This document shows, piece after piece, positions 2,770 to 63,624 of a stretch of DNA of 64,000 nt (the first letter of the stretch is position 1; each line of letters starts with the position of its first letter). The notes beneath the pieces are model-generated. The model worked only from the letters and a program-made list of their open reading frames with translations. It made no database searches and had not been told where the DNA came from. The position numbers and the translations under genes are program-made. Source of the stretch: a virus. The DNA lies in the IMG/VR virus record IMGVR_UViG_3300046167_000921, positions 96,001 to 160,000 of that record. One strand, 5' to 3'.

Positions 2770-4494
2770 ATGTACTCTTTTTCTGATCACGCAAAGGCTC
2801 TACTTGGGACTTATTACATGAAGGACGAGGACGGCTCCACCGAAGAAGCATTCCACAGAGCCGCATATGCCTATGCTTCGACACCCGAGCTGGCTCAGAG
2901 AATTTACGAGTACGCATGTAAGGGCTGGTTTATGTTCTCAAGCCCCATCCTCTCCAACGCGAATGGGAATGGTATGCCCATCTCTTGTTTTCTCACATAT
3001 GTGGAGGACACAGTCGAAGGACTCATCGAACACACGGAGGAGTTGCGTTGGATGAGCGTTATGGGTGGCGGTGTCGGTGGTCATTGGGATCACGTTCGAT
3101 CAGTAAGTAAAAAATCACCTGGCCCAATTCCTTTCTTGAAAACGGTGGACTCTGATATGGTAGCTTACAGGCAGGGTCAAACACGCAAAGGATCTTACGC
3201 GGCGTATTTGGATGTCTCTCACCCAGATCTCATTGAGTTCCTCAACGTCCGTATGCCTACAGGGGGTGACCCCGCACGCAAGTGTTTCAACATCAACAAC
3301 GCGGTGAACTTGACGGACGAGTTCATGACCGCTGTGATGAGTGGTAGTAAATGGGATCTGGTTGACCCAGCGGATAAAACTGTCAGGGACACTGTTGACG
3401 CAAGAGAGCTTTGGCAGAGAATTCTTGAGGTTCGTTTTCGTACAGGAGAGCCATACCTTAACTTTATTGATGAGGCAAACAGGCACTTACCTCAGCCTTT
3501 AAAGGACAAGGGTCTTAAGATTCACGGGTCTAATCTCTGTAACGAAATCCACCTTCCCACAGGTGTGGGTCGTTCAGCGGTCTGCTGTCTATCTAGCCTC
3601 AATGTTGAGATGTTTGATGAGTGGAAGGACACATCTATCGTTGAGGACTTGATTGAGTTCCTTGACGACGTACTTCAGTTCTTCATTGAGAACGCACCTG
3701 CTCAATTGGGGAAAGCTGTCCGCAGTGCTCAATCTGAGCGTTCACTTGGCTTGGGTACGATGGGCTTCCATGCATACCTACAAAAGAAGGGTCTTCCTTT
3801 CGAGTCAGTGTTTGCGGTCTCTGCGAACCGAAAGATTTACTCGACGATCAAAGAACGGGCTGTTGCTTCTTCTAGGAGGCTCGCAGAACTCAAGGGGGAA
3901 TATCTTGATGGGGTTGGTTCGGGCATGAGGAACAGTCACTTGCTGGCCATCGCCCCGAATGCGAATTCGGCTATTATACTTGATACAAGTCCTAGCATTG
4001 AGCCTTGGAAGTCTAACGCTTTCACCCACCGTACTAGAGCGGGGTCTTTTTTGCAGTTCAACAAGTATCTTAGAGCGGTGTTAGAGTCTCATCAGGAGAG
4101 ACTACCTGAAGAAGACAGAGAAGAGTGGATAGACGATCAAGTTCAATCTATCATCTTAGCTCAGGGCTCAGTTCAACACTTGGATTACCTGACCGTCTCT
4201 GAGAGGGACACTTTCAAGACCGCTTTTGAGCTTGATCAGATGTGGGTTGTTGAACATGCAGGTGTGCGTCAGGAGTGGATCTGCCAAGGCCAGAGCGTGA
4301 ACCTCTTCTTCCCTGCGGGTTCAGACAAGAACTATGTTAATGCTGTCCACTTGAGTGCGTGGAAGAAGCAACTGAAGGGGTTGTATTATCTTCGCACCTC
4401 TGCTGGTGTTGTGGCAGACAAGGTGAGCGAGAAGATTGAGCGTAAGGCTTTGAAGGACTATGACATAGACGAGTGTATTAGCTGTCAGGGCTGA
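2770..4494 (+). CDS. nrdA: Class Ia ribonucleotide reductase alpha subunit, no N-terminal ATP cone
   Basis: FMFSSPIL, PISCF, GSNLCNEI (active-site N-x-C-x-E), VCCLSSLN, IAPNANS, GLYYLR, C-terminal CxxC (ECISCQG). Confidence 0.97.
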   Translation: MYSFSDHAKALLGTYYMKDEDGSTEEAFHRAAYAYASTPELAQRIYEYACKGWFMFSSPILSNANGNGMPISCFLTYVEDTVEGLIEHTEELRWMSVMGGGVGGHWDHVRSVSKKSPGPIPFLKTVDSDMVAYRQGQTRKGSYAAYLDVSHPDLIEFLNVRMPTGGDPARKCFNINNAVNLTDEFMTAVMSGSKWDLVDPADKTVRDTVDARELWQRILEVRFRTGEPYLNFIDEANRHLPQPLKDKGLKIHGSNLCNEIHLPTGVGRSAVCCLSSLNVEMFDEWKDTSIVEDLIEFLDDVLQFFIENAPAQLGKAVRSAQSERSLGLGTMGFHAYLQKKGLPFESVFAVSANRKIYSTIKERAVASSRRLAELKGEYLDGVGSGMRNSHLLAIAPNANSAIILDTSPSIEPWKSNAFTHRTRAGSFLQFNKYLRAVLESHQERLPEEDREEWIDDQVQSIILAQGSVQHLDYLTVSERDTFKTAFELDQMWVVEHAGVRQEWICQGQSVNLFFPAGSDKNYVNAVHLSAWKKQLKGLYYLRTSAGVVADKVSEKIERKALKDYDIDECISCQG

Positions 4495-5177
4495 CTGTCT
4501 AAGAACCTTTGAGCTACTCTTTCGGCGGAGGAGCTTCTATCCCTAAAGAAGTTCTTAACTGACCCAAATATTCCTCTTTGGTCTATGATTGCGGCCTTAG
4601 CTTCTATGAAGAACTCATTTACCGTCAAGCCTATGTTAGTTGGCCAGCCGTCAATTGCTGTGATGTAAAGCTTCCTCCTTAAAAAGGGGTCGGTTTTTTT
4701 CAGCCTCTTGAGGTCGGTGAGAAGCTGGGTTATTTCATCCTCTTGAGCCTCTTTCGCAGATCGCACTAACTCTTTAATTTCATTAATGAGTGATTGCAAA
4801 GCTTTATTTGAAATCTCTTCCCTTCTCTCAGTTGTCGTGACCATTCCGTCAGGCCATTTGAGTGTAGAGTACTTGAAGTAGAAGCCTTTTTTTTCAAGGT
4901 AGGGGATGTCTTCTTCTTCTATCTTATAGCCTGACAGGTCGCTGTCGATGAATTTAGTGTCAGCGGGGAAGGCTTCCCTGCCTGCACTTGTCAGTATGGA
5001 TTTGTGTACGCTCTTGTGAAAGATGCATCCTTTGAAGACTAGGCTTCTTGGATTTGCTTTTTGAAGTATTTCTTCAAAGATACCTCTCCGTATTTCAGAG
5101 AAGTCGTGTTGGGTGAAAAGCATTTCCCCCGCTTTGAGAGACTTCAAGAGGACTAAAGATTTTTCTGCCTGTGGCAT
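4485..5177 (-). CDS. hypothetical protein with C-terminal RVAQRF tag (member of dispersed tagged family)
   Basis: ORF track; ends IFGSVKNFFRDRSSSAERVAQRFLDSQP; overlaps the nrdA stop tail-to-tail. Confidence 0.7.
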   Translation of the reverse strand: MPQAEKSLVLLKSLKAGEMLFTQHDFSEIRRGIFEEILQKANPRSLVFKGCIFHKSVHKSILTSAGREAFPADTKFIDSDLSGYKIEEEDIPYLEKKGFYFKYSTLKWPDGMVTTTERREEISNKALQSLINEIKELVRSAKEAQEDEITQLLTDLKRLKKTDPFLRRKLYITAIDGWPTNIGLTVNEFFIEAKAAIIDQRGIFGSVKNFFRDRSSSAERVAQRFLDSQP

Positions 5178-13781: not shown

Positions 13782-13806
13782 CGAGACCCTCAAACTTATT
13801 GATAAT
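13782..13806 (+). promoter_or_regulatory. putative promoter CGAGAC-N13-GATAAT
   Basis: Motif shared with 12960 and 63141 at identical spacing. Confidence 0.55.
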
Positions 13807-59178: not shown

Positions 59179-59867
59179 TGAAAGACATGATAGAATATTT
59201 CAAGACAATGATCACCCCCCCTGTAAAGGATGCTTGTGTCATTGTGAGTAAACCTAGCGAGATCAACTTTGAAAGCTACCTAGAAGAGGTTTTTGAAGAG
59301 GGGGCTATTGCCTCCTCTCTCCAACCAAAAGCTCACGGTGTCATCCTGCTAGGAGAGCCTACAAAAGAGGAGTCTCAGAAGATTCAAGACATACTCAAAC
59401 CCGGAGGTCACGTAGTCCTAATCCCCGACTCAGATATTGGGTACAAGGGGGTAATCGCCCTTGAGGACACAGGCTTTGAGGTACGAGATGCGATCTTTGT
59501 GGCAGAAGAGGCAGATAGCTTCTATTACACGTCAAAGGCGAGTAGGTCAGAGAGAGAAGCGGGCTTGGTTGCGGAAGAAGGGAAGAGGGGTAACGTTCAC
59601 CCTACGGTCAAGCCTATTGAGATTATGGAGTGGTGTGCTAGAGGCATAGAGGCAAGCTCTACTATAGTAGACCCTTTTATGGGGTCTGGTACTACAGGGA
59701 TTGCAATGTCTCGAAAAGGTCACAACTTCATTGGTATAGAGTTGAACCCAGAGTATGCACAGATCTCAGAGCAGAGGATTCGTCATTGGAAGCCTATTGA
59801 CACTGAGATCAAGTCAGAGGCGAAGCCTGTTGACACTGAGTTCAAGGGTCAGGTTTCTCTTTTTTAG
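59178..59867 (+). CDS. DNA methyltransferase SAM-binding C-terminal segment with a degenerate extra N-terminal copy (split MTase part 3)
   Basis: FYYTSKASRSERE, HPTVKP, DPFMGSGTTG (motif I), FIGIELN; upstream ILKPGGHV...EDTGFEVRDAI. Confidence 0.9.
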   Translation: MKDMIEYFKTMITPPVKDACVIVSKPSEINFESYLEEVFEEGAIASSLQPKAHGVILLGEPTKEESQKIQDILKPGGHVVLIPDSDIGYKGVIALEDTGFEVRDAIFVAEEADSFYYTSKASRSEREAGLVAEEGKRGNVHPTVKPIEIMEWCARGIEASSTIVDPFMGSGTTGIAMSRKGHNFIGIELNPEYAQISEQRIRHWKPIDTEIKSEAKPVDTEFKGQVSLF

Positions 59868-61243
59868 AACTCGTCGTCCATGTCATAACCCATGAGGTCT
59901 TCCTCATAACCCATGTGGTCGTCCATCATAGCCATGAGTTCCTGATCTTCACTCATGTGGTCATACATACCCATGTGTTCTTCCTCATTGCTCTCTACCT
60001 CTTCACCGTAGAGACCCTCGACAAAACGAGATGCGACGCGACGACCCGCTGTTGGGTTATGGTATGCCCTCCGAGTTACGAACTTCCTTAACTTTCTTCC
60101 GAAGCTCATGTCCAGCTTTGTTCTCTTGTCAGTCTTGATGTTCTTAAGCGTGACGTTTGAGAGATCTACGCCAGAGAGATCTGCCCCTCTAAGATCTGCA
60201 CCTGTAAGATCCGCACCGTCGATAGAAAGAACGCCTGTGAGATCCGCACCGTCAAGATTCGCACCCCTTAACTTCGCATCTGTCAGATCCGCACCTTCGA
60301 AATTGCTTCCGTCAGAGAGATCTGCTTCTATAAGGATTGTGTTTCTCATCTTAGCGTTTGTGAAATCTCCGCCCTTAAGTTTACAAGATTTCATGTTAGC
60401 ACGATTAAAGTTAGTTCCTACAAAAGATCCGTTTTCTGCAGAAGACCCTTCAAGATTTGCACCCTCGAAAATGAGAGATTCTAAGTTCGCCAGATTTCCA
60501 AACGAGCCTGAATAGGTGATCCTGCTAAGATCTGTCCTCATTGAGAAGGTACACCCTTCGAGAGCCCCTTCGTCTTCAAATTCGATGCCCACAAGGTCGG
60601 TTTTTTTAAATGAAGTGCCATTGACGCTGTGGATCTTCTTAACTCCAATGAAACTGCATTCTTCAACCTCACCATTCATGATGACAACGTTTGTCAGATC
60701 CGCGTGGTTAAAGATGACTCTCTCAAGACCATCAGCGGTTGCCATGTTCGCGTTCGCCATAGTTGCTCTGGTAAAGTTAGCTCCCCTCAAAACAGTATTG
60801 TTTATGTTTGTGAAGTTAAGGTTAGCCCCTACGAACTGTGCCATCGTAAGATCGGCATTTTCGAAATTAGCCATGCCTATCCTGAGGCCACTAAAATTAG
60901 ACCTCTCCAATTCACAGTCAGAAAAATTCGTATGGGACACAGTCACAAGCCCCTTAATCTTGGTGAAGTCCCTCTGGTTGAGGTTCATATCAGAGAGATC
61001 CGCACTAGGGATGTATTTACCTAGCTTTTCAATGATATCGGGATCTTCCTTTTTTTTGTAATTGATGTAATTTTTGAGTGCCTTATCATCCTTTTTACTT
61101 TTTTTCAATGCTTCAAGGAGTACTTGCTCTTGCTCTTCATCCTCTAACCCAGCCTGGCGTGCGGCGGCTCTCCTCACCCTGTTAAGGTAAGCTCTTCTCT
61201 TCATTGCGAGTTGTTTCTGAACTCTTCGTGATGCTCGTCTCAT
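59864..61243 (-). CDS. pentapeptide-repeat protein with basic N-terminus, RRVASRF tag and acidic Met-rich tail
   Basis: Start reassigned to ATG 61243 behind AAGGAG; A(D/N)(L/F)xx repeats; MSFGRKLRKFVTRRAY...GRRVASRFV. Confidence 0.9.
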   Translation of the reverse strand: MRRASRRVQKQLAMKRRAYLNRVRRAAARQAGLEDEEQEQVLLEALKKSKKDDKALKNYINYKKKEDPDIIEKLGKYIPSADLSDMNLNQRDFTKIKGLVTVSHTNFSDCELERSNFSGLRIGMANFENADLTMAQFVGANLNFTNINNTVLRGANFTRATMANANMATADGLERVIFNHADLTNVVIMNGEVEECSFIGVKKIHSVNGTSFKKTDLVGIEFEDEGALEGCTFSMRTDLSRITYSGSFGNLANLESLIFEGANLEGSSAENGSFVGTNFNRANMKSCKLKGGDFTNAKMRNTILIEADLSDGSNFEGADLTDAKLRGANLDGADLTGVLSIDGADLTGADLRGADLSGVDLSNVTLKNIKTDKRTKLDMSFGRKLRKFVTRRAYHNPTAGRRVASRFVEGLYGEEVESNEEEHMGMYDHMSEDQELMAMMDDHMGYEEDLMGYDMDDEF

Positions 61244-61632
61244 GTTGTTTCTCCTTTGAATGACATAGCCACTATTGTAAGCCATAAACAAGATATAAAA
61301 GACATAGTGTTTTTTTGAACTTCCCTATCTAGGTTGAACCTATGACTCTATCCTACAACGTCACCCTCCCTACTTTATTATTTAAAGAGTTCTTTAGTCT
61401 CAGCGGACTTTTCAGTTGAGATATCCTTACTGCCTCTTCCCTGACATGGGCAGGGGGAAAAAGAATAAGCCCCTCCAATCTCCTTCTATAAGAGTAAAGG
61501 GGTACGAGGGTGAGTAGAGTAGGTGTTGAGACAACTAAAAAAATAGGATGGCTGTCTATGCTCATGCTGTAGGAGAGCCTGTAACCTAGTTTAGGGCTAC
61601 TCGGAAGACCCTAATCCAGCCACAAAAACCAG

Positions 61633-62299: not shown

Positions 62300-62527
62300 T
62301 TAGCACGCACCTCCTCACGGAGGGTCAAAAAAGAGATGACACTGCACGGAAGCATTCTTGTAGGGGGTTCGAATCCTCCGCCTCAGGGTGGCCAGAAGAC
62401 TTCGGTTAGGTTTGGTCGCAGGTTTACTGAAGACTTTAAGCTCTCTCAGAGATAGTTGTATCTTAGGGTTCGATCCCCTTTCCATCATCGGTGGGTTTTG
62501 GTACGGTACAGTGAAGTGTGCTTTTAA

Positions 62528-62842: not shown

Positions 62843-62919
62843 ATTTTTTCTCCTCCTTACTTGGTAGAGTGCTATTTGTGTAGGGCGTTCCTACACATTA
62901 CACACACAGGAGAATGGTA

Positions 62920-63126
62920 ATGGGAGACAGCGTAAGAAACGGTTATGAGATTAGGGAATCTCTCTTGGAAATGGCGATCAACATTCTACAAGAGAGGGTG
63001 AGCCAAGAGCGTGAGAATGAGTACCTTAAGCCAGAAGGTACTCGTCAACCCGTTCAAGGCTTTGACGTTAATGATGTTATCAAGGTTGCTCACACGCTTG
63101 ACTCTTTTGTCAGTCGAAAAAATTAA
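62920..63126 (+). CDS. small conserved phage hypothetical protein
   Basis: NGYEIRESLLEMA...DVIKVAHTLDSFV; AGGAG RBS favours ATG 62920. Confidence 0.75.
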   Translation: MGDSVRNGYEIRESLLEMAINILQERVSQERENEYLKPEGTRQPVQGFDVNDVIKVAHTLDSFVSRKN

Positions 63127-63140
63127 GTGATAATAATTTG

Positions 63141-63165
63141 CGTGACCACTCTTCATATAGATAAT
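63141..63165 (+). promoter_or_regulatory. putative promoter CGTGAC-N13-GATAAT
   Basis: Motif shared with 12960 and 13782; ends 7 nt before the tRNA-like RNA. Confidence 0.6.
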
Positions 63166-63172
63166 AAGAGAT

Positions 63173-63325
63173 GGGCGTATAGCTTAGTTTGACAGGTGAC
63201 TGTGATACAGTTTATCTGAGAGCACTGTTAAGTCGGTACTACCGATTAGGTTAAAGTCTGACCAATACTAGTCAGGGTCAGGTCACTTTCCGCAGGAGGG
63301 TCGGGTTTAAACCCCGATACGCTTT
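63173..63325 (+). ncRNA. 153-nt tRNA-like RNA with expanded D-loop and anticodon arm
   Basis: GGGCGTA/TACGCTT acceptor, GCTT/GAGC D-stem, TCGGG-TTTAAAC-CCCGA T-arm; 26-nt hairpin in the D-loop and ~55-nt structured insert in the anticodon arm. Confidence 0.7.
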
Positions 63326-63332
63326 CTAATAA

Positions 63333-63404
63333 GGTCCCATCGTCTAGGGGTTAGGACATCGGCCTTTCACGCCGAGAACGCGGGTTCAAATCCCGCTGGG
63401 ATCA
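63333..63404 (+). tRNA. trnE: tRNA-Glu (TTC)
   Basis: GGTCCCA/TGGGATC acceptor, TCGGC-CTTTCAC-GCCGA anticodon arm. Confidence 0.95.
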
Positions 63405-63516
63405 CTATGTGTGCCTTCACGCAGGCTTGTTGCAACAGGTAAGTCAAGGTTTAGACCTTGACAGGGGCTGGTGGTTGATACACCTTTCCATTGAAACAAA
63501 GAATTAAGGTGTCTTA

Positions 63517-63589
63517 GGGTCGTTAGCTCAATTGGTAGAGCAGTAGACTTTTAATCTATTGGTTCTGGGTTCGAGTCCCAGACGACCCA
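63517..63589 (+). tRNA. trnK: tRNA-Lys (TTT)
   Basis: GGGTCGT/ACGACCC acceptor, TAGA-CTTTTAA-TCTA anticodon arm. Confidence 0.96.
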
Positions 63590-63594
63590 CTCTT

Positions 63595-63624
63595 AAAGAG
63601 TCTCTTCGGAGGCTCTTTTTTTTT
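63595..63624 (+). terminator. intrinsic terminator after the tRNA cluster
   Basis: AAAGAGTCTC-TTCG-GAGGCTCTTT followed by a T run. Confidence 0.9.

Follow-up and report, generated by a model that had tools for sequence, protein, structure and literature searches.

Phage clusters of transfer RNA (tRNA) genes that contain tRNA-like stable RNAs, such as RNA C and RNA D of phage T4, have been known since the 1970s. These two stable RNAs, of 139 and 119 nucleotides (nt), respectively, lie inside the T4 tRNA cluster near tRNA-Arg, and the rnaC product has a canonical T arm beside its terminal stem together with long extra hairpins. Their roles are still unexplained after decades (PMC3014915, PMC9697503). 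In RNA engineering, the tRNA scaffolds of Ponchon and Dardel keep the acceptor, T and D arms of a tRNA while a cargo replaces the anticodon stem-loop; such RNAs are processed and stable in E. coli (PMC3753655), and in bacteria it is the frame that ensures correct processing and resistance to nucleases (PMC3753655, PMC3401473). Here we describe a 153-nt RNA element at positions 63173-63325 of a 64,000-nt stretch of DNA from a large uncultured marine phage, hereafter called the window, which comprises bases 96001-160000 of a 177,493-bp (base pair) IMG/VR record (IMGVR_UViG_3300046167_000921) judged to be 57% complete. The element lies on the plus strand between a 70-amino-acid (aa) open reading frame (ORF) and tRNA-Glu(UUC), and it is an uncatalogued addition to the old class of phage tRNA-like stable RNAs. 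We consider it fairly probable that it is a conserved, non-decoding RNA gene that derives from a tRNA and yields a stable RNA built on a tRNA scaffold.

The element resembles the T4 RNAs in several respects. Like RNA C and RNA D it adjoins a true tRNA, at a distance of 7 nt from tRNA-Glu in the window and of 6 nt from tRNA-Lys in a related contig (L004), and it has the architecture described above for rnaC. Beyond generic tRNA parts there is no sequence relation between them: a covariance model built from the element (R1), which was run without filters, gave a partial match of 14.7 bits to T4 rnaC, within the range of the true T4 tRNAs, and did not match T4 rnaD at E values up to 1. Unlike the T4 RNAs, the element keeps a D arm and an equivalent of the anticodon stem and has its own predicted promoter on the 5' side, and while RNA C and RNA D stand at the 3' end of a tRNA transcript and their expression is proven, the element is known here from DNA alone. 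The engineered scaffolds are man-made, whereas the element is natural and carries a second insertion in the D-loop. We found no literature description of a phage tRNA-like RNA with an arm in the D-loop plus a replaced anticodon loop.

The element is homologous to the tRNA frame. R1 matched all five tRNAs of the window end to end with 24-31 bits (E 6e-8 to 3e-6), and in these alignments the element has a 26-nt hairpin opposite a 0-nt gap in the true tRNAs and a 62-nt block opposite 8 nt around the anticodon loop. The end-to-end matches hold for the tRNAs of relatives also, and T4 tRNAs are matched too. The best match was tRNA-Arg(CCU) with 30.9-34.2 bits, which ranked just slightly first, and local alignment gave no significant tie of the element to any single neighbouring tRNA.

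Contigs carrying homologues of the element were reached through homologues of the upstream 70-aa ORF and of a downstream 60-aa ORF. Five sequence variants from independent seawater assemblies were obtained, namely the window copy; L019 and L020, which are 98.7% identical to it and have the T-loop UUCAAAC; L004 and L005 (88.5% identical, 156 nt); L110 and L111 (90% identical, 156 nt); and L018 and L017, which hold only the 5' part of the element, the contig ending inside it. The window version was also found unchanged in DNA contigs of three more seawater runs (X7, X10 and X19). In a six-row alignment, standard pairs occupied 98.2% of the cells, compared with 30-42% in controls in which the pairing partners were slid by 1-3 columns. 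Changes on both sides were seen at five pairs, of which three are in the acceptor stem (3-70, G-C or C-G; 4-69, C-G or G-C; 5-68, G-C, G.U or A-U), one is in the D-loop hairpin and one is in the CUGACC/GGUCAG stem. The pair changes, though few, occur at sites predicted by the structure. The initial annotation had taken the preserved pairing as an argument against random decay, and both the contrast with the slid controls and the compensatory changes in homologues bear this out. Since the fold of the single sequence is just mildly better than that of shuffled sequences (z = -2.5), the case for a gene rests on these homologues.

The element is a real, selected RNA gene, conserved at the level of tRNAs and above the level of the non-coding flanks. 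When the window was compared with L110, which has the same gene order, identity was 90% for the element, 100% for tRNA-Glu and 93% for tRNA-Lys, and it was 81% for the spacer between tRNA-Glu and tRNA-Lys, 75-84% for the neighbouring ORFs and 65% for the promoter region. In the comparison with L004, the corresponding values were 88.5% for the element, 88% for tRNA-Arg, 79% for tRNA-Glu and 74% for the ORF. The differences between the variants lie mostly in the acceptor stem, where they represent compensated turnover, and the inserted domain is almost invariant.

The tRNA frame of the element starts with a 7-bp acceptor stem, GGGCGUA/UACGCUU (63173-63179 with 63318-63324, plus strand, as for all parts of the element), in which the two outermost pairs are G.U and all seven pairs are standard in every variant. 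The base preceding G1 is always U, and the discriminator at 63325 is U (T in DNA), or C in L110. U8-A9 and the 5' strand of the D-stem, GCUU (63180-63185), align in the covariance model with UAGCUCAG of true tRNAs. Pairing of GCUU with the 3' strand GAGC (63220-63223) is compatible with the alignment, with U13.G22 changed to U13-A22 in L004, and a rival fold without the D-stem exists. Within the D-loop stands the 26-nt hairpin (63193-63218), which has 11 pairs and a GAU loop. In the alignment 98% of its cells are paired; a single pair, A-U with G-C instead in L018, shows covariation, and two others change on one side only. In the 3' half, the GCAG strand and the 5-nt variable loop GAGGG (63292-63300) align with their counterparts in true tRNAs, the loop being AAGAG in L004. 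They are followed by the T arm UCGGG-UUUAAAC-CCCGA (63301-63317), which has an invariant 5-bp stem and a 7-nt loop. U8, A14, G18/G19, A21 and T54-U55 of a canonical tRNA are all present in the element.

In place of the anticodon arm, CUGU (63225-63228) pairs with GCAG (63292-63295) and aligns with the anticodon stem of true tRNAs. CUGU is invariant among the variants and hence gives no covariation signal, and the 4-bp helix encloses about 63 nt. The enclosed region begins with hairpin A, AGUCGGU-ACU-ACCGAUU (63231-63247), whose four core pairs are invariant. Its tip carries a 3-nt GUA insertion in L004 and L110, so the loop length is not fixed at 7 nt. A single-stranded linker, AGGUUAAA (63248-63255), is the same in every full-length variant and leads to hairpin B (63256-63283), in which the 8-pair stem GUCUGACC/GGUCAGGU closes an invariant 12-nt loop, AAUACUAGUCAG. 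Pair 90-111 of this stem, within CUGACC/GGUCAG, covaries, being U-A in two sequences and C-G in three. The last segment, CACUUUCC (63284-63291), is invariant; it is unpaired in the cloverleaf and pairs with GGAGGGU in the rival fold. The other pairing that had been proposed for CUGACC, a local hairpin CUGAC/GUCAG, is broken in three of five sequences. Because the local hairpin is broken and the long-range CUGACC/GGUCAG stem covaries, the latter is the real pairing, and for the same two reasons a conformational switch at CUGACC is not supported.

Much of this anatomy had been noticed in the initial annotation. The acceptor stem, D-stem and T arm are all present as they were read there, including the TTT of the T-loop in the window, and removal of the 26-nt hairpin does restore a canonical D-loop, provided that the deletion is shifted by one base (ACAGG...ATCT), which gives AGTTTGGAGAGC (in RNA, AGUUUGGA) with G18 and G19 kept. 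The CTGT/GCAG enclosure exists and spans about 63 nt. Between the two pairings that had been proposed for CTGACC, that with the downstream GGTCAG stands and the local CTGAC/GTCAG hairpin falls. The remark that no clean 7-nt anticodon loop is evident also holds, as none is conserved and the tip of hairpin A carries an indel.

The element almost certainly does not decode. First, a tRNA anticodon arm has a 5-bp stem and a 7-nt loop with U33, while the element has a 4-bp stem around its inserted domain; the sole candidate for a 7-nt loop, in hairpin A, is the one with the 3-nt indel in L004 and L110, and there is no stretch whose removal would give back a 5-bp stem and a 7-nt loop with U33. Second, the D-loop, which has 7-11 nt in tRNAs, contains the conserved 26-nt hairpin. 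Third, position 56 of the T-loop, a nearly invariant C in working tRNAs, is here (63308) U in the window and the three further seawater runs, C in L019/L020 and L110, and A in L004. Finally, the discriminator is U or C, and acceptor pairs 2-5, where many tRNA identity elements are located, have all been exchanged among the variants. The changes in the loop, at T-loop position 56, at the discriminator and in the acceptor stem make it improbable that an acceptor-reading synthetase charges the RNA and that the ribosome uses it. Compared with a canonical elongator tRNA (RF00005), the element thus has a homologous frame, and it differs in having no anticodon loop, an additional 26-nt arm in the D-loop and no conserved C56. 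It falls below the thresholds of both Rfam and ARAGORN: ARAGORN at default settings did not call it with or without introns, and Rfam 15 gave no match even at E values up to 10. Standard tRNA and RNA-family tools miss such genes.

Upstream of the element there is a promoter-like motif, TATAGATAAT (63156-63165, plus strand), whose -10-like GATAAT (63160-63165) ends 7 nt before G1. The pattern TAT[AT]GATAAT occurs at four sites in the 177-kb record against about 0.7 expected, each of them after a C-rich tract and in a non-coding setting; two sites are at window positions 13797 and 63156 and two are outside the window, at genome positions 10241 (plus) and 23732 (minus). The pattern looks like a promoter class specific to this phage. 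The motif is retained before the element in L018, L004 and L110, in agreement with the initial annotation of a conserved promoter at this distance, and its position makes a transcription start at or within 2 nt of G1 likely. On the 3' side, 6-12 nt with CUAAU separate the element from the next true tRNA, and L004 and L110 share the CUAAU. The promoter and the element of L004 stand 6 nt before tRNA-Lys and its terminator, upstream of the 70-aa ORF, while in the window and in L110 tRNA-Glu and a spacer stand between the element and tRNA-Lys. Since they are kept before different tRNAs (Lys in L004, Glu in the window), the promoter and the element appear to be one unit that heads a tRNA operon.

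In the window, the next gene of this putative operon is tRNA-Glu(UUC), which is found by ARAGORN and Rfam and starts at 63333, 7 nt downstream of the element as first annotated (linker CUAAUAA and tRNA, 63326-63405, plus strand). A spacer of 111 nt (63406-63516) leads to tRNA-Lys(UUU), and the hairpin behind it (63595-63618, within 63517-63618, plus strand), which resembles an intrinsic terminator, would close the operon. An encoded CCA is absent from all tRNAs of the cluster, and the element is likewise without CCA. In the 177-kb fragment, which represents 57% of the genome, no gene for a CCA-adding enzyme (PolyA_pol) was found. Since the tRNAs have no CCA and the fragment has no gene for the enzyme, CCA addition would depend on the host or on a phage gene located beyond the fragment.

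We suggest that the frame has kept those parts that tRNA-processing enzymes read, that is, the 7-bp acceptor stem, the T arm, the core of the D arm and the 5-nt variable loop, and that two additions have been made to it: the 26-nt D-loop hairpin and, in place of the anticodon loop, the near-invariant 62-nt domain of two hairpins. A phage promoter of its own would drive transcription of the element, as the leading gene of a short tRNA operon and with a start no more than 2 nt from G1, and the element would be released when ribonuclease P (RNase P) cuts the tRNA 6-12 nt downstream. Its 3' end would then be trimmed and CCA would be added, as for the neighbouring tRNAs. The tRNA frame would supply maturation and stability, by analogy with the engineered tRNA scaffolds, and the function would reside in the inserted domain, which most likely offers a surface that a protein or an RNA binds in the infected cell. 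Of the two alternatives that the initial annotation had offered, this one corresponds to a tRNA-mimicking non-coding RNA, and it gains from the compensatory changes, the tRNA-level conservation, the tRNA-homologous frame and the lack of a conserved decoding loop. The element is cleanly delimited, its frame and its inserted cargo are separable, and it is the cargo that is under the strongest constraint; the role of such RNAs becomes testable through the 62-nt domain. The element would also be a natural precedent for the tRNA-scaffold trick of RNA engineering.

Several observations weigh against this explanation. First, the five variants are closely related (88-99% identical), so the covariation represents few events. 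Second, the inner part of the cloverleaf has a competitor, which RNAalifold favours and in which the D-stem and the CUGU/GCAG helix are lost; instead, hairpin A is extended by AGC.CUG with UAG.GUU, and CACUUUCC pairs with GGAGGGU. This rival fold fits the alignment equally well, with 99.2% of cells paired and the same five covarying pairs, and for the window sequence it is the more stable one (-46.0 versus -40.1 kcal/mol), whereas for L004 it is slightly worse (-35.7 versus -36.9 kcal/mol). The acceptor stem, the D-loop hairpin, the core of hairpin A, hairpin B and the T arm are firmly supported. Third, the sole RNA run with this phage covers 62429-62614, with no differences, and not the element. 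Fourth, no complement to the invariant loop was found in the 177-kb fragment. Finally, the element is absent from 42 related huge-phage IMG/VR records, five of which are at least 90% complete, and a search with R1 of the more distant relatives of the 70-aa ORF (L006-L016 and L021-L024) yielded no copy.

If the element is a stable, scaffolded RNA as we suggest, a more specific possibility is that it works as a natural tRNA-scaffolded aptamer, in which a domain for binding a protein or RNA, with its two hairpins, invariant 12-nt loop and invariant linkers, has been grafted onto a tRNA frame that host tRNA enzymes would mature and stabilise, and in which this domain neutralises a host factor such as a tRNA-directed immune nuclease. 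We regard this version as rather unlikely; if true, it would provide the first function for the phage RNA class that includes T4 RNA C and RNA D. Another specific version of the same explanation, which we also judge unlikely, is that the element acts as a decoy: with a tRNA body (acceptor, T arm and elbow) that lacks a cleavable anticodon loop, it would sequester or block an anticodon nuclease, or another immune protein that binds tRNA, and would thereby protect phage and host tRNAs. It is consistent with the companion tRNAs, which are Met, Arg(UCU), Arg(CCU), Glu(UUC) and Lys(UUU), as Lys, Glu and Arg tRNAs are classic targets of anticodon nucleases, and with the pentapeptide-repeat proteins that flank the region, which fit an accessory or anti-defence neighbourhood. 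It also agrees with the finding that phages employ tRNAs to counter PARIS, retrons and further systems that cut tRNAs (PMC11464382, PMC11555353, PMC10264068). However, the known nucleases mostly read the anticodon loop, which is absent here, and simple mimicry of the tRNA body leaves the near-invariant inserted domain unexplained.

Less probable, in our view, is a role in cis only, in which the element is the first module of the operon, a structured 5' cap that stabilises the primary transcript or guides RNase P or other enzymes to the next tRNA and has no role once released. The constant position of the element, which always follows the -10-like box by 6-7 nt and precedes a true tRNA by 6-12 nt regardless of the identity of that tRNA, is what such a cap would show. 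On the other hand, a cap would not need 62 near-invariant nt with a 12-nt loop that never changes, and no such module accompanies the remaining tRNAs of the cluster.

A decaying pseudo-tRNA, that is, a duplicated tRNA gene which received two insertions and is now drifting, would account for the missing anticodon loop and for the loss of C56, and a degenerate tRNA-like remnant does lie nearby (62413-62489). This explanation is largely refuted already and we hold it to be very improbable: where the window and L004 differ at paired positions, about 13 of the roughly 15 substitutions preserve pairing, five pairs covary, the element is as conserved as working tRNAs and more so than the non-coding flanks, and the insertions are its best-conserved parts. 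The other alternative of the initial annotation, in which a phage or host activity would splice out two introns to give a decoding tRNA, fits the position of both insertions at tRNA loop sites in an otherwise complete frame, but it is the least credible of all, because none of the possible junctions yields a 7-nt loop with U33, ARAGORN in intron mode makes no call at its default threshold after deletion of the D hairpin (and only a contrived 'Tyr(ata)' at a 90% threshold), the inserts are too short for group I introns and have no group I intron or ribozyme match in Rfam, they exceed the 'exons' in conservation, whereas spliced-out spacer RNA should show the opposite, bacteria are to our knowledge not known to have a machinery for splicing D-loop introns and, as a weak point, the 177-kb fragment has no RtcB gene.

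Other known classes and roles were considered and rejected. A transfer-messenger RNA (tmRNA) does not fit, as ARAGORN made no tmRNA call and pair 3-70 is G-C or C-G and not G3.U70. For YrlA, a bacterial Y RNA, there is no RF02553 match at the element and no TROVE gene in the 177-kb fragment, and the ends of YrlA, unlike those of the element, do not lie at an acceptor stem. A mobile-element origin of the inserts is unsupported, the inserts being single-copy in the genome, and an antisense role is not indicated, since neither the invariant loop nor the linkers have a complement beyond chance in the 177-kb fragment.

The family of the element is narrow. The stretch itself is present in many seawater metagenomes, and the large terminase (TerL) of the record is 64-87% identical to the TerLs of uncultured phages of about 290-485 kb. 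When exact and degenerate DNA patterns were searched in viral and genome contigs, no homologue was found, and the pattern search in metagenome contigs returned only the L005 contig. A blastn search against 50,697 phage records gave only matches to tRNA-Glu, megablast of 9 kb gave no match, and R1 found no copy in LR745208.1, whose TerL is 64% identical. A close relative (L002) ends before reaching the element. In one of the 42 related records, G007 (complete, 312 kb, TerL 87% identical), a 118-nt sequence stands between the ORF homologue and tRNA-Glu (L107:1709-1826). Its ends form a 7-bp stem without mismatch, AUAAGUG/CACUUAU, and it includes a T arm, GCAGG-UUUUAAC-CCUGC, while its interior is unrelated; its R1 score is 10 bits, and it is unique among the 42 records. 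This sequence may be a second tRNA-like RNA or a far-diverged homologue.

Upstream of the element, the small tRNA cluster of the window contains, on the plus strand, tRNA-Met (from 62227), tRNA-Arg(UCU) (from 62528) and tRNA-Arg(CCU) (from 62651). A terminator-like hairpin comes after tRNA-Arg(CCU), and the 70-aa ORF (62914-63126, plus strand) lies between this hairpin and the element. The gene order near the element varies between relatives. The tRNA-like sequence at 62413-62489 has a canonical T arm (GGGTTCGATCCCC). ARAGORN recognises it, as 'Glu(ctc)', only when the threshold is lowered to 70%, and the stems then contain mismatches. A metatranscriptome contig (62429-62614) covers part of it without differences, and the sequence may represent the remains of a tRNA or a further unusual RNA. 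Within the operon, the 111-nt spacer 63406-63516, at 81% identity to L110, is clearly above the promoter and leader regions (50-65%) and may hold a further structured or processed RNA. Two pentapeptide-repeat proteins are encoded on either side of the tRNA region (window 59864-61291, minus strand; L003:12647-13567, minus strand). Such proteins may mimic DNA, and their presence hints that the neighbourhood is accessory or serves anti-defence. In L004, a gene resembling GIY-YIG homing endonucleases (3476-4693) directly follows tRNA-Glu and recalls segB in the tRNA cluster of T4.

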